This document shows, in pieces, positions 45,570 to 55,761 of a stretch of DNA of 64,000 nucleotides (the first letter of the stretch is position 1; the number at the start of each line of letters is the position of its first letter). The translations under genes were made by a program, and so were the position numbers. Under the pieces are notes generated by a model. That model worked only from the letters and a program-made list of their open reading frames with translations, had not been told where the DNA came from and searched no databases. The DNA lies in UHGV virus genome UHGV-0171787; one strand, written 5' to 3'. Source of the stretch: a virus.

Positions 45570-45773
45570 TTAGTAGAACGAACGGATTTCATCCCACACT
45601 TGTTCCTGTTCTTTCCTATAAAAAGAAAGTTGGGTCTTGAACATCTCCACTGATGATTCAAAGTTTTTAGATTGTGCAGCTTCAACGAAACGTTCATGTC
45701 TGTTGATTTTGCACCGTAACATTAAATACTTGGCTTCAAGTCTCCGAAGAGCTTGTCTTTTCTCAAGATTCAC
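45570..45773 (-). CDS. Hypothetical protein
   Basis: ORF track, 67 aa. Confidence 0.4.
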   Translation of the reverse strand: MNLEKRQALRRLEAKYLMLRCKINRHERFVEAAQSKNFESSVEMFKTQLSFYRKEQEQVWDEIRSFY

Positions 45774-46188
45774 TTTTCAGATACTCTGACCAGTCACCAG
45801 ATTCAACCAGAACATCTTGTTCTTCGTCAATATGGTAGATATAGCATTCAACAATTTCACCTGAATCCATCTTGACGTTGACCAGAGACCTGTTGTAGAA
45901 GCTATCTTCAGGGCTATGTTTGTTGTAACCTTCCAGTCGGTCATATGGACCTTCCAGACCTGCTTTGTCAGTAGCAAACACTTCTACACGAACAGGCTTA
46001 TTGTTATTGCTGTGTGCGAGAGAGATGCTCGGGAAGTAGGAACCACCGTAACGGAACAGATCGAAGTTATCTTCAGTCCAACCTTCACCGATTGACTTAG
46101 CACCAGCTCGGTCATTAACTAAATAGTTAGCTTGACCACTTCTCAAAGACCCATAACATGCGACTAAAACTTTATTTTGTTCTGACAT
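45763..46188 (-). CDS. Gamma-glutamyl cyclotransferase-like (AIG2/GGCT fold) protein
   Basis: 141 aa; N-terminal VLVACYGSLRSG matches the YGSL motif of the GGCT/AIG2 family. Confidence 0.55.
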   Translation of the reverse strand: MSEQNKVLVACYGSLRSGQANYLVNDRAGAKSIGEGWTEDNFDLFRYGGSYFPSISLAHSNNNKPVRVEVFATDKAGLEGPYDRLEGYNKHSPEDSFYNRSLVNVKMDSGEIVECYIYHIDEEQDVLVESGDWSEYLKSES

Positions 46189-46720
46189 TCTTGTAACCCT
46201 TATGTTGATATTGTAAGCCTTTATGAACAGCTTGCATCGAAGAGTGCGCTAGATCATTTTCTCGGCAGAATTTTCTGAGGTTAAACACCTCAATCGTCAA
46301 CCCCTCTGGAGAAACAAAACTCCAGAAATCAGCATTGCCTTCATGACCTCTATTGAGACCTGTATCAAAAGCATGTTGATTATTCTCAGCGGTTGTAACC
46401 CATTCCAAGTTGCTAGGATGGTTATTTAACTTATCACCATCTTTATGATTTACGAAGGGTTTATTCTCTGGATTATCTACCCAGACAAGTGCTACAAGTC
46501 GGTGATAGAAATGAAGCTTCCTATCAGAGAGTTTGATACGAGCGTAACCAGCACGATTAATATTTGCTGCCATGATCAACTCTCTATCTTTCCTATGACG
46601 TGTTCTTGTCTTTGGATTGATATGCCAACGATAGTTACTACGAATATGACCTTCCTCAGAGATAGAGTATTGCCCCTCGTAACCAGTAATTTCTTTCCAC
46701 TCCATTGAATAACCCTCCAT
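46172..46720 (-). CDS. HNH homing endonuclease (NUMOD4 + HNH_3)
   Basis: 182 aa; WKEITGYEGQYSISEEGHIRS and HRLVALVWV...NHKDGDKLNNHPSNLEWVTTAENNQHA. Confidence 0.7.
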   Translation of the reverse strand: MEGYSMEWKEITGYEGQYSISEEGHIRSNYRWHINPKTRTRHRKDRELIMAANINRAGYARIKLSDRKLHFYHRLVALVWVDNPENKPFVNHKDGDKLNNHPSNLEWVTTAENNQHAFDTGLNRGHEGNADFWSFVSPEGLTIEVFNLRKFCRENDLAHSSMQAVHKGLQYQHKGYKNVRTK

Positions 46721-46868
46721 AAATTTAAACTATTTCTAGTTCATTACATCTTGGCCAGACTTAGAACCATAAGTTGCTACGTAAATTACTTCTGACATTA
46801 TCTATACCTTTGTTGGTTTGTTTAGTTTATCCGAACTAGCCTCCTCTTTTCGAAGAGGCTAAAGCAGA

Positions 46869-52782: not shown

Positions 52783-53589
52783 TTATGCTACCTGAAGGAG
52801 TTTGATCTGCTGGTCAGCTTCTTTAACGTTGTTCCCGTTAATGATTTCATGAAGCTTCTCAATCGGAAGGCGAGAGTGCAATGCCATCAGAGTGGACATG
52901 TCACACTGCTGAACAACCTTGTCAACCTGATCGTAAACAAACTTACGATTTTCACGATCACTAATCCAGAAGTTGGACAGCGAACGGTATTCAATACCAT
53001 AGTCTTTATAACGGATTGCAGATGCTTTACCATAGAGTTCTTTACGGCGAGTATCTTTGTCCATAATTACTGCTGGAAGAGACAGGAAGTAGTCACACAG
53101 CACACCCAGCATCATCTGAGTTTGCAGAGTGATATCCAAAGCACCAACTACGCCAAGATGTACGTGACCACCGGCAGTACGAAGCCCTTTGTTCTGAGAA
53201 GTCGGGGATGGATTCTTCTGACCAGTGAAAGCGTTGAAATCAGGAGTACACCCGAAGATGAACGCTGATTCATTGAAAGTCTTCATCTCTTCTTCAGTGA
53301 AGATGTGAGAGCTAACACCCGGAGCTGTTTCCATGTCAAGTTTGTTCAGGACACTGTTGGTGAGATCAATACCACGTTGCATGTTGTCGTTAAACGCTTC
53401 AAAGCTGCTCTGTGGGTCAATATCAAACTCAGCCAGTACGTTGTCCTCTTGAAGACGAACATCCTTAGCCAGAGTGATCTTATCGTCCTTAGAACAACCT
53501 AACAGACCAGCTACCGAGGTAATGATACCATTACTGGTGCGAACGAACATCTCGGGATCGCTCCCAATAAGGAATTTGCGCTTAGTCAT
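52783..53589 (-). CDS. Hypothetical protein, possibly a second divergent carboxylate-amine ligase
   Basis: 268 aa; LIGSDPEMFV and GGHVHLGV motifs loosely parallel the acidic and HxH motifs of the adjacent amidoligase. Confidence 0.4.
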   Translation of the reverse strand: MTKRKFLIGSDPEMFVRTSNGIITSVAGLLGCSKDDKITLAKDVRLQEDNVLAEFDIDPQSSFEAFNDNMQRGIDLTNSVLNKLDMETAPGVSSHIFTEEEMKTFNESAFIFGCTPDFNAFTGQKNPSPTSQNKGLRTAGGHVHLGVVGALDITLQTQMMLGVLCDYFLSLPAVIMDKDTRRKELYGKASAIRYKDYGIEYRSLSNFWISDRENRKFVYDQVDKVVQQCDMSTLMALHSRLPIEKLHEIINGNNVKEADQQIKLLQVA

Positions 53590-54553
53590 TGTAATACTCC
53601 ACTAGTTCAGAAAAGAGAGATGAGATTGTGTTACCAACTTCTTCAAGAGTAAGACCAGAACTTGGGCCAGTACGCTGAATCAGTCGGGCTGTAAAGTTTT
53701 GTACTGTAATGCTTTCCAACTTATTGTCTATTGTTTCACGTTTGTGACCATGACAGTTGGACCAGAGTCTTAACCACCCTGACATTGTTTCATACTCGTC
53801 TGGGTCTTGATCTTTATCAAGAGCAAATCCTCGTAAGGCCTCTGGGTTATGGTTACGAACATAACCATTCTCATTGTAACCAACACCGAAGGGGTTTTGA
53901 ACCCATACTTGCTTCGTGTACTCATCAGAGTCTACAACCAAAGGAAGGAATGCTGCTGCTGACATACCATTTTCGATAACAATGGCTGTGTTCTCACCAC
54001 TCCCATTGGAGGTTCCTCGTTGAGACCATCTACCGAAGAAGTCACGGCCCAATCCAGCTAACACTAGAGCGATGCCGATGCGTTTACGCTTCAGCCACTC
54101 TTCCCTGTCTTCAATTCCTTCTGCTAGGAAATCCATTCCACGATACTGCCCTTCCAGAATACTACGGAAGAGCATAAGTCCTGTGAAGATCTGATCTGCT
54201 GGATGCTCACGAAGGTTGACAGCAACACTATTCGCTGAAGTGATTGTAAATACGTCACGATAGCAAGACATGGAGTTCATAATGTCTGCTGTTTCAACCA
54301 AGTTCTTTTCAATCTCAGATGCAGGGTGATTGTGAAAAGAGTGAGTCCAGTAATTCAACATCTCCAATTGCAAGTTAATACCACGGTTGAAGCGTCTATA
54401 ACGCCCATCTTCCGTGATAACTTCGCCATCAATATCATTTACGCATTGGCCTTGCATGTAGTTGTGGACACCGAAGCACCCACGACCTAAGAACTTCTGT
54501 TCCCCTAAATCCTGTTGAAGATTCAGAGGTACGATCGTTGTGGAGATTGACAT
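53582..54553 (-). CDS. Hypothetical protein (enzyme-cluster member)
   Basis: ORF track, 323 aa; overlaps neighbours by a few nt. Confidence 0.45.
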   Translation of the reverse strand: MSISTTIVPLNLQQDLGEQKFLGRGCFGVHNYMQGQCVNDIDGEVITEDGRYRRFNRGINLQLEMLNYWTHSFHNHPASEIEKNLVETADIMNSMSCYRDVFTITSANSVAVNLREHPADQIFTGLMLFRSILEGQYRGMDFLAEGIEDREEWLKRKRIGIALVLAGLGRDFFGRWSQRGTSNGSGENTAIVIENGMSAAAFLPLVVDSDEYTKQVWVQNPFGVGYNENGYVRNHNPEALRGFALDKDQDPDEYETMSGWLRLWSNCHGHKRETIDNKLESITVQNFTARLIQRTGPSSGLTLEEVGNTISSLFSELVEYYND

Positions 54554-54555
54554 AA

Positions 54556-55761
54556 CTAACCTTTTATTTTCCTAAAAAATAATCCGCTCATAACACCATC
54601 CCATTCAGAAGATGGAACCACTGAATACTCCGAACTTCGGTCCAGAGTTCCACTACTAAATCGCTGAACAATGTTATAGATGTTGAACATATCTTTAGTC
54701 TCAATACGATTACCGTAGATTAACTTTTCAGCTGTTCTTTCATTTTTAGACACGCGACGGGTAAAGTTAACCAAAAGGTTATCACCTTTAAGTATCTCTG
54801 ACCCATCTTTTACTAGATCGGGATGCATCACTGGCAAGAACATTGAGTTGTTCACTCGTAATTCTGCTGTTTCATCATTCTCATAATGAATCCACTTAAA
54901 ATCTTCATCACGAAAGTGACCGCATCCATCTCTGTATGACTGTTGACGCCAAGGCACTTGAAATGCTTCAGCGTATTTATCAGCCATACCAACTGTAAAT
55001 AGCGACGCTGGGAAGATACAAGCATCCCAATCATTACCAACCAGAGTTGCTTTCGTTTCACCCAAGAGGTTAGTGTAAGTGCTAACCATTCGTGAGTAAA
55101 CATAAGCCTGAAGGATTGTCCAGCCTTCAACCAACCATTTATGGAGGAAGGTTTCAACTTGACTCTCTTCATCTTCACAATAGAAGGTTCGATCTAACAT
55201 CAAATAGAACAGACAGCGATCAGCAGGAACATTTTCAGTTGCTACACCCATAAAACCTTTCTCGTGCCAGCGTAAACAGGAGGGACGATCTTTGTCCACA
55301 AATGCTTCCATAGCTTCCAGTACAGCACGAGGTGTGGTTCGATGCTCAGGGTTTTTGTCATTCCAACGTTCAATGTTGTTTTTAAGCTCGCCTTCGTAAT
55401 CAATAGCACCCCAACCCAAAGCTGCGGATACAGGTTTTTCATCACGCCAACGTATAAAACCTAACATCTTCATGTGAGTTCCGGAGTTCCAGATATGCTT
55501 AATTTTACACATATCCATTTCTTTACTTAACAGGAACTCTTCCCCATCAGAACTACGAACGTTATCTTTTTCATGCCACACTCGAACGTGCATATTCCAC
55601 CCATGAGTTGCCTCATACATGTTAAGGTCGAAGTAGTCACCATCTTCGTCATCGTTTTCATCAACGCCACCGTTATAGTTGCGAAGCTGAAGGAACCCAT
55701 AACAAGGAGGGTTGACCGTTAAAACATTACCTTCAGTATCTTCTAATGTTACTGGAAACAT
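54556..55761 (-). CDS. Hypothetical protein (enzyme-cluster member)
   Basis: ORF track, 401 aa. Confidence 0.45.
   Translation of the reverse strand: MFPVTLEDTEGNVLTVNPPCYGFLQLRNYNGGVDENDDEDGDYFDLNMYEATHGWNMHVRVWHEKDNVRSSDGEEFLLSKEMDMCKIKHIWNSGTHMKMLGFIRWRDEKPVSAALGWGAIDYEGELKNNIERWNDKNPEHRTTPRAVLEAMEAFVDKDRPSCLRWHEKGFMGVATENVPADRCLFYLMLDRTFYCEDEESQVETFLHKWLVEGWTILQAYVYSRMVSTYTNLLGETKATLVGNDWDACIFPASLFTVGMADKYAEAFQVPWRQQSYRDGCGHFRDEDFKWIHYENDETAELRVNNSMFLPVMHPDLVKDGSEILKGDNLLVNFTRRVSKNERTAEKLIYGNRIETKDMFNIYNIVQRFSSGTLDRSSEYSVVPSSEWDGVMSGLFFRKIKG

Follow-up and report, generated by a model that had tools for sequence, protein, structure and literature searches.

The 64,000-nucleotide (nt) stretch of the virus genome UHGV-0171787 analyzed here (hereafter the window) carries on its minus strand, at positions 45763-55761, a block of genes which we assign as the ortholog of gp77-gp88 of phage phiEco32, the type example of the predicted phage amidoligase module. 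The two blocks correspond gene by gene, with the order kept and ~94% nt identity to published Kuraviruses. Five recognizable enzymes are encoded in the block, namely three ligases, a class-II glutamine amidotransferase (GATase), and a gamma-glutamyl cyclotransferase (GGCT); all five keep their catalytic residues and are predicted to be active. We tentatively favor, with somewhat less than even confidence, a reading in which the module is a soluble cytoplasmic multi-enzyme pathway that both makes and trims amide linkages of the glutamate/glutamine type (isopeptide or gamma-glutamyl), with a single dedicated acceptor.

The best matches of the 10-kb region were Escherichia/Shigella Kuravirus phages (~94% nt identity over 94% of the length; 99 phage records matched), and we classify the window accordingly as a Kuravirus (Gordonclarkvirinae), a phiEco32-like C3-morphotype E. 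coli podophage. According to two citing papers (PMC10580990; PMC11318856), the module was predicted computationally by Iyer, Abhiman, Burroughs and Aravind (Iyer et al., 2009, Mol Biosyst), and the Pfam family PF14395 bears the title "Phage phiEco32-like COOH.NH2 ligase-type 2". Because the module is already catalogued (Iyer et al., 2009; Pfam and PHROG families) and the copy described here is an ortholog of it, we rate the system as already known, and the suggestion made in an earlier reading of the same DNA (the original prediction) that it is an undescribed system has to be abandoned. The account given there, that the module had been predicted by computation and that its substrate had yet to be established, agrees with what the citing papers relate of that work. 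No experimental characterization of the module was found in the literature searched up to mid-2026, and the 2009 description of the phiEco32 module was, as relayed by citing papers, computational only. The phiEco32 module and the one in the window are alike in Pfam families, genes, and order, with no substantive difference. What the present analysis adds is a third ligase, the core role of gp85, the paralogy of gp87 and gp88, a Peptidase_C26 protein at the gp87 position in relatives, quantified co-occurrence, and linkage to primase/helicase genes.

All genes of the block listed in the original prediction exist as open reading frames (ORFs), co-directional and on the minus strand, at the coordinates given there, and the ATT start of the GATase gene at 50976 was confirmed. 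The four enzyme assignments made there (GGCT-like, ATP-grasp, class-II GATase, and amidoligase) were borne out by Pfam or family-profile matches; its count of four ligase/amidotransferase-type enzymes was not, since the recognizable enzymes number five. Of the four tightly packed ORFs that it listed as unknowns, all exist, but the one at 52783-53589 encodes a PF14395 ligase, which leaves three. The block is interrupted by non-core elements, comprising an HNH/NUMOD4 homing endonuclease gene and the small ORFs gp78, gp79, gp81, and gp82. Since the module proteins are acidic and possess no transmembrane or other hydrophobic segments, we read them as cytoplasmic. Expression is supported in the close relative SU10, for which mass spectrometry of concentrated phage material identified the ATP-grasp, GATase, and GGCT (YtfP) proteins and a 23-kDa protein, and the authors grouped them among "early gene products" (PMC4281155); 23 kDa is the size of gp85. 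Promoter-like sites were not enriched in the block and terminator-like sites were in modest excess (15 compared with 7.9 expected), and the promoter/terminator scan resolved no operon boundary. A search of BFVD matched only uncharacterized phage proteins.

The order of the five-gene core (gp86-gp85-gp84-gp83-gp80) is kept at 25-40% identity across Kuravirus, Grimontviridae, Pseudomonas PaP3/LUZ24-like phages (Bruynoghevirus), and metagenomic contigs, in most cases shortly upstream of primase/helicase genes, and because the gene order recurs in distant phages at 25-50% protein identity the block is non-random. In Grimontviridae (Aeromonas phage BUCT695 and Proteus phage Privateer; 27-51% identity), the genes follow one another in the same order, as gp88-like, gp87-like, gp86, gp85, amidoligase, GATase, gp82-like, a small ORF, and ATP-grasp; further on from the ATP-grasp gene, BUCT695 has GGCT and then a helicase. 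Scanning IMG/VR with the gp86 alignment yielded 23 loci, 10 of C3 type and 13 others (the latter on contigs of 26-114 kb), and the core order was found in 10/10 and 10/13 of them, respectively, the exceptions being two loci with another gene order (L026, L030) and one with gp86 only (L027). An ORF of ~220 amino acids in the non-C3 loci proved to be a gp85 homolog (hhalign 97.9%, E 5e-13), and gp84 adjoins gp83 in almost every related locus covering this part. In PaP3/LUZ24-like phages the block is followed by GGCT, primase/helicase, and exonuclease genes, and in the metagenomic locus L021 it runs into primase/helicase, exonuclease, and DNA polymerase genes; Kuravirus, BUCT695, PaP3-like phages, and L021 all have the module directly upstream of primase/helicase-exonuclease genes.

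With distant queries, tblastn detected the gp86-like ligase in 314, the ATP-grasp ligase in 310, the amidoligase in 320, and the GATase in 350 of 50,697 phage records, so that ~0.6% of sequenced phages carry the module. The genus breakdown is near-identical for the four enzymes (Pseudomonas ~120, Escherichia 94, Vibrio ~20, Aeromonas ~10, Proteus 8, Salmonella 7, Cronobacter 6), and the core genes are inherited as a unit. Because the core enzymes co-occur with matching genus breakdowns, the possibility considered in the original prediction, that the genes are routinely found apart, does not hold. Hosts of gp86-bearing phages range from Proteobacteria to cyanobacteria and Planctomycetes, and the gp86 family comprises more than 4366 clusters at 90% identity in a set of 5.8 billion proteins, on phage-sized contigs. 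In three loci, a Peptidase_C26/class-I GATase protein resembling the gamma-glutamyl hydrolase PuuD is encoded immediately upstream of gp86, at the position held by gp87 in Kuravirus (L018 3877-4533, L021 9155-9832, and L023 9057-9932; E 1e-18 to 1e-23).

The GATase gene, ortholog of gp83 (48946-50976, minus strand), encodes a class-II enzyme of the N-terminal nucleophile (Ntn) type matching the GATase_6 and GlmS profiles. A mechanical ORF call covers 48946-50637 only, from an internal TTG at 50637; most other Kuravirus records shorten the gene in the same way, whereas the phiEco32 record carries the identical 2031-nt coding sequence. The full-length gene begins ATT-TGT-GGC-ATC, encoding (M)CGI, and because a TAG stop lies two codons upstream of the ATT, no canonical start is possible. 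Extending the protein from the TTG to the ATT start raised the GATase_6 score from 23.8 to 54.6 bits (cutoff 27), and the family profile aligned from residue 1 with the GlmS glutaminase domain (E 6e-18). The glutaminase domain occupies approximately residues 1-250 and is followed by a serine/glutamine-rich linker and then by a region that varies between homologs; zinc-ribbon motifs of the CxxC type occur at 440, 487, 512, and 641. In nine diverse homologs (23-39% identity), C1, G2, R28-G29, H83-x-R85-x-x-T88, N96-A-H-P-F100, H109-N110-G111, and D128-S129 are invariant, a set that corresponds to the nucleophile, oxyanion hole, and glutamine-binding residues of GlmS/PurF-type enzymes; among them, R85, T88, and D128 are those that bind the alpha-amino and alpha-carboxyl groups of glutamine. 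No Pfam or PDB-profile match indicating a fused synthase (acceptor) domain was obtained past approximately residue 250. In its GlmS/PurF/AsnB-type Ntn glutaminase domain, complete active site, and ligase neighbor, gp83 resembles two-component amidotransferases (the logic of AsnB and MurT/GatD), but it differs from them in having no fused synthase domain and in its partner, which is a glutamine-synthetase-like amidoligase rather than a PP-loop or Mur-ligase enzyme.

Upstream of gp83 lies a nine-codon leader ORF, MKGFTLQVD* (50980-51009, minus strand; ATG AAA GGG TTT ACC CTT CAG GTG GAT TAG), which ends 3 nt before the ATT. It is kept in phiEco32, in ECBP2-type and KBNP1711-type Kuraviruses, and in Aeromonas phage BUCT695 (as MKGLTLQAD*), the loci that have it including L003 (at ~11210-11246), L008, L011, and L017; in other relatives, the gp83 homolog begins at a plain ATG without a leader. 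The leader region of ~45 nt is almost identical in nucleotides between Kuraviruses and the distant BUCT695, although the proteins are only 30-50% identical. Such a near-identical leader before an ATT start suggests control of translation by termination-reinitiation or in an IF3-sensitive manner. Folding of the leader showed no exceptional stability (z -1.1).

For the ATP-grasp, amidoligase, and GATase proteins, single-sequence searches against PDB gave marginal matches or none, and family profiles were used instead. The gp80 ortholog (47306-48502, minus strand; phrog_2599, E 1e-182) falls below the Pfam thresholds (Dala_Dala_lig_C 17.2 bits; RimK 16.4 bits compared with a cutoff of 21), but its family profile, built from 12 diverse homologs, matched RimK structures over ~207 residues (E 4e-10), and also cyanophycin synthetase (E 3e-7), Ddl, and LysX (E 3e-3). 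As the Pfam RimK cutoff was missed while the profile matched RimK structures, we class gp80 as a RimK-like ligase and not as a demonstrated RimK. Its Mg/ATP residues (K173, D229, and E241-x-N243) are invariant in the family. The best solved-structure matches, RimK, LysX of the LysX/LysW system, and cyanophycin synthetase, all extend peptide or protein carboxylates; compared with RimK, gp80 has, beyond an acidic linker, an extra basic C-terminal domain of ~80 residues (C-terminal isoelectric point 9.85), and residues 317-398 match phrog_20552.

The other two ligases are of glutamine-synthetase-like type. The gp84 ortholog (51056-52159, minus strand), a carboxylate-amine ligase of the Amidoligase_2 family (PF12224, E 5e-8, 33.5 bits compared with a cutoff of 22; phrog_7469, E 2e-155), shares with 10 diverse homologs the invariant residues G29-x-E31-x-E33-x-E35, H95, H97, E119, R130, E186, and R188, a pattern of histidine, arginine, and glutamate typical of such ligases; its family profile found no homolog in PDB. 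The gp86 ortholog (52783-53589, minus strand) is a COOH-NH2 ligase of type 2 (PF14395, E 1.5e-8, 34.7 bits compared with a cutoff of 25; phrog_3815, E 2e-118). Its identity to the counterparts in BUCT695 and Privateer is ~50%, an alignment of four proteins has 88 invariant columns, and the profile match marks it as the third ligase of the module.

The gp77 ortholog (45763-46188, minus strand) belongs to the gamma-glutamyl(amine) cyclotransferase (GGACT/AIG2-like) family (PF06094, E 1.5e-15, 58.2 bits compared with 22.8; phrog_2520, E 3e-42), carries the motifs YGSL (residues 12-15) and LEGY (residues 85-88, with the catalytic glutamate), and is 51% identical to the GGCT inside the BUCT695 copy of the module. 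The known substrate of GGACT is epsilon-(gamma-glutamyl)-lysine, which leans toward a macromolecular or carrier-bound acceptor. The gp85 ortholog (52156-52773, minus strand) is a non-enzymatic protein predicted to form tandem SH3/KOW/Tudor-like beta-barrels, and its nearest structural neighbors are nucleic-acid-binding KOW/Tudor barrels. Its gene always sits between the two glutamine-synthetase-like ligase genes, and the protein exhibits a conserved flexible-loop motif, R-x3-K-G, with a near-invariant lysine-glycine; we regard it as a universal non-enzymatic core member and a candidate adaptor or acceptor.

On the pathway reading introduced above, gp80, gp84, and gp86 would successively couple glutamate or another amino acid to the acceptor, at either an amine or a carboxylate group. 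The constant adjacency of gp84 and gp83 suggests that the two form a two-component amidotransferase, in which gp84 would activate a carboxylate with ATP and gp83 would supply ammonia from glutamine, or else that gp83 performs an EgtC-like step, hydrolyzing a gamma-glutamyl amide. The gp77 protein would then remove a gamma-glutamyl group as 5-oxoproline, a role that the PuuD-like Peptidase_C26 may share in some relatives, and gp85 would present the acceptor or might itself be the carrier through its loop lysine-glycine. The presence of GGCT here and of Peptidase_C26 in relatives suggests that the gamma-glutamyl group is transient or can be removed, and the logic would be one of protecting or activating and then removing, as in butirosin biosynthesis (BtrJ/BtrG) or the Puu pathway (PuuA/PuuD). 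In both of those, a ligase (in the butirosin case, the ATP-grasp gamma-glutamyl ligase BtrJ) is paired with a gamma-glutamyl remover (there, the GGCT-family protein BtrG), as in the module, where the counterparts are GGACT (PF06094) here and Peptidase_C26 in relatives; the likeness holds at the family level only. By analogy, this pairing suggests that gamma-glutamyl may serve as a transient protecting or handle group. The module differs from the butirosin and Puu pathways in having no acyl carrier protein, aminoglycoside, or polyamine-catabolic gene, and those pathways, in turn, lack its three ligases, class-II GATase, and SH3-like core protein.

As to the class of acceptor, the loop lysine of gp85, the linker and zinc ribbons of gp83, and the affinity of gp80 to RimK, LysX, and cyanophycin synthetase tilt us weakly toward a protein- or carrier-bound group rather than a free metabolite. 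Several points weigh against the pathway reading as a whole. No result obtained here identifies a substrate, product, or acceptor, and beyond the enzymes themselves, which look active and always travel together, the steps are ones that we infer. The gamma-glutamyl-removing types present (GGCT, Peptidase_C26, and class-II GATase-like proteins) are familiar above all from the metabolism of small molecules (glutathione, PuuD, EgtC, and BtrG), gp85 could be a mere scaffold, and the constant place of the module beside replication genes is no less compatible with a role related to nucleic acids. The LysX/LysW system has the acidic-tail carrier LysW, and a survey of the small ORFs turned up neither such a carrier nor any other Pup/LysW-like tag whose acidic C-terminus is conserved. 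As to pupylation (PafA/Dop/Pup), no Pup_ligase-family enzyme was found, nor a small disordered tag with a GGQ or GGE end.

Among the alternatives, the one that we rate highest, although we consider it unlikely, is that the module both synthesizes and turns over a small molecule of glutathione-like or gamma-glutamyl-amine type, such as a polyamine or peptide bearing gamma-glutamyl, which could serve redox or nucleotide supply, DNA condensation, or the neutralization of a host metabolite. The folds do mirror a gamma-glutamyl cycle, with a GshA-type glutamine-synthetase-like ligase, a GshB/RimK-type ATP-grasp enzyme, an Ntn hydrolase, and GGCT, to which the relatives add a PuuD-like Peptidase_C26. 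The ligases, however, are far from GshA, GshB, and PuuA (the amidoligase profile found no PDB homolog), and neither a core barrel protein such as gp85 nor the zinc-ribbon and linker appendages of the GATase would be expected in a soluble metabolite pathway. A related version, in which the genes could support "auxiliary nitrogen metabolism", was put forward in eLife in 2024 for phage ZRK32, in which the same four genes were taken as auxiliary metabolic genes for nitrogen metabolism (PMC10945688). A gp86 homolog was found in ZRK32. The claim was based on growth effects and not on enzyme assays. Moreover, because the closest gp86 relatives lie on phage-sized contigs, the module is not host-derived.

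Less probable still is that the module attaches an amino-acid- or peptide-like group to phage DNA, or to a dNTP, while replication proceeds or afterwards, and thereby protects the genome. The location directly upstream of primase/helicase-exonuclease genes, the nucleic-acid-binding barrels nearest to gp85, and the zinc ribbons of gp83 would all fit, and such decoration would account for the resistance to restriction-modification that the BASEL-2 study reported for Gordonclarkvirinae. In the window, 31 EcoRV, 93 EcoP1 (both orientations), and 9 EcoKI sites are kept, and because they remain, avoidance alone cannot explain resistance to these systems. In viromes, amidoligase and amidotransferase genes co-associate with thymidine-hypermodification genes (Lee et al., PMC8989533), and the clusters carrying 5-HMUDK and aGPT-Pplase lie near replication genes, as the module does (Lee et al., 2018, 2022). 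Unlike those clusters, the module shows no hydroxymethylase, 5-HMUDK, or aGPT-Pplase, and ThyX is present instead. More broadly, Pfam searches detected no dUMP/dCMP hydroxymethylase, 5-HMUDK, aGPT-Pplase, TET/JBP, DpdA, or methyltransferase among the cluster proteins, and no thymidine-hypermodification enzyme among these or the larger early/middle ORFs of the window. The phage has an ordinary ThyX and dCTP deaminase, canonical bases offer the ligases no carboxylate, and the module proteins are all acidic. Bruynogheviruses bearing the module have reportedly been mapped with restriction enzymes, which also counts against modified DNA. A more specific form of the idea, which we hold to be doubtful, would make the module a 5-hmdU-kinase-independent route of DNA or nucleotide-pool hypermodification attaching a gamma-glutamyl or amino-acid-derived group, with gp87 and gp88, which have an invariant Pro-Cys-type motif, activating the base and gp85 and the zinc ribbons of gp83 docking on DNA; if true, it would explain the type I-III restriction resistance of Gordonclarkvirinae without known modification genes.

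Site counts over the whole window bear on the same question. Palindromes are depleted, both 6-mers (702 observed compared with 1071 expected, nine 6-bp palindromes being absent) and 4-mers (3103 compared with 4187), GATC occurs 144 times compared with a Markov expectation of 293, CCWGG occurs only 4 times, and 6 EcoRI sites are left. This strong avoidance of palindromes and Dcm sites suggests DNA exposed to restriction over evolutionary time, which argues against a protective modification. As a full explanation of the restriction resistance, site avoidance was itself rejected, given the EcoRV and EcoP1 sites that remain despite the depletion. Just downstream of the replication genes, on the minus strand, lie the genes for ThyX (38516-39172; PF02511, E 5e-44), dCTP deaminase (41091-41624), and a CCA-adding-enzyme-like nucleotidyltransferase of 452 amino acids (41646-43004), the latter two of which were suspected by the BASEL-2 authors of a role in DNA modification.

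An effect on the envelope, in which peptidoglycan or surface-glycan precursors would be altered in the cytoplasm to block adsorption or injection by later phages (superinfection exclusion), seems quite improbable: the ATP-grasp protein also matches D-Ala-D-Ala ligases and a SleB-like cell-wall hydrolase is encoded in the same early region (60516-60905 in the window, and also in Privateer and the related locus L006), but the module is all soluble, with no Mur-ligase, glycosyltransferase, flippase, or membrane protein, the phages are strictly lytic with short latent periods, the linkage kept across lineages is to replication genes and not to lysis or envelope genes, and host envelopes differ from Proteobacteria to cyanobacteria and Planctomycetes. 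Class-II GATase enzymes (AsnB1/LtsA) do amidate the meso-diaminopimelate of peptidoglycan. The proposal of Iyer et al. (2009), as relayed in PMC10580990 and PMC11318856, speaks for such a role, but it is a prediction only.

With 310-350 of 50,697 phages per core enzyme, the module is among the most widespread "known unknowns" of phage enzyme systems, and among the phages that carry it are E. coli Kuraviruses that are candidates for therapy and Pseudomonas LUZ24/PaP3-like phages. Three mutually incompatible functions, receptor modification, nitrogen auxiliary metabolism, and DNA modification, are cited in the literature as if established. A solution would reveal either a virus-made peptide modification linked to a protein or carrier, a metabolite, or a modification of DNA, in each case a new one; the DNA modification, if true, could explain the restriction resistance of Gordonclarkvirinae. 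Genetics can now address the question directly, since E. coli K-12 is a host of the BASEL isolates Bas86-94.

The remaining genes of the block are accessory or of uncertain membership. The gp82 ortholog (48710-48943, minus strand), a small basic DUF7195 protein (PF23825, E 4.7e-17), has homologs directly downstream of the GATase gene in C3-morphotype phages, including BUCT695 and Privateer (L003, L004); a K-G-I-K motif near the C-terminus is common to Kuravirus, BUCT695, and Privateer, and the protein may act as a partner of the module or serve as its substrate. Between gp82 and the ATP-grasp gene, the gp81 ortholog (48505-48729, minus strand) is a small ORF whose membership in the module is uncertain; a small ORF holds this position in phages Paul, phiEco32, BUCT695, and Privateer, with no sequence similarity detected between them. 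The gp87 ortholog (53582-54553, minus strand) represents a small phage-only family of unassignable fold, with invariant C26, G28, R130, and R233, and the gp88 ortholog (54556-55761, minus strand) is its paralog, as indicated by a shared N-terminal P-C-(F/Y)-G motif and by alignment of the two families (hhalign 87% probability, E 4e-6, 164 columns). By tblastn, gp88 was found only in Escherichia/Shigella Gordonclarkvirinae, and shorter counterparts occupy the equivalent position in BUCT695 and Privateer. We take gp87 and gp88 to be accessory enzymes, specific to the lineage, in which a cysteine is invariant. At the gp88/gp87 positions of PaP3-like phages, Pseudomonas phage p2-10_Or1 (L031 5433-7507) encodes orf48 and orf47, of ~375 amino acids each, and orf48 contains an "SSCFG" motif resembling the P-C-F-G of gp87/gp88; single-sequence hhalign comparisons of orf47/orf48 with gp87/gp88 were not significant, so that the "CFG" motif and the position are suggestive only.

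Other differences from related phages concern neighboring elements. At 38876-39791, phage NJ01 has an annotated deoxynucleoside monophosphate kinase gene between the 5'-3' exonuclease and sigma-factor genes; the corresponding position in the window is held by ~268 nt (30505-30771), and the kinase appears to be absent here. The window contains two HNH homing endonuclease genes, both on the minus strand (46172-46720 and 58433-58948). The first, encoding NUMOD4 and HNH_3 domains, is flanked by the GGCT gene and gp78, with an overlap of 17 nt at the GGCT start; relative to phiEco32 it is extra in this genome, and it does not occur at that position in phage Paul either. Finally, a group I intron (Rfam RF00028, 86.3 bits, E 2.8e-21) was identified at 44095-44305 on the minus strand, inside the primase/helicase gene, whose flanking exons lie at 44293-45543 and 43500-44045 on the same strand; blastn against phiEco32 revealed the corresponding insertion of ~254 nt (44043-44296), the phiEco32 gene being uninterrupted over 1791 nt.

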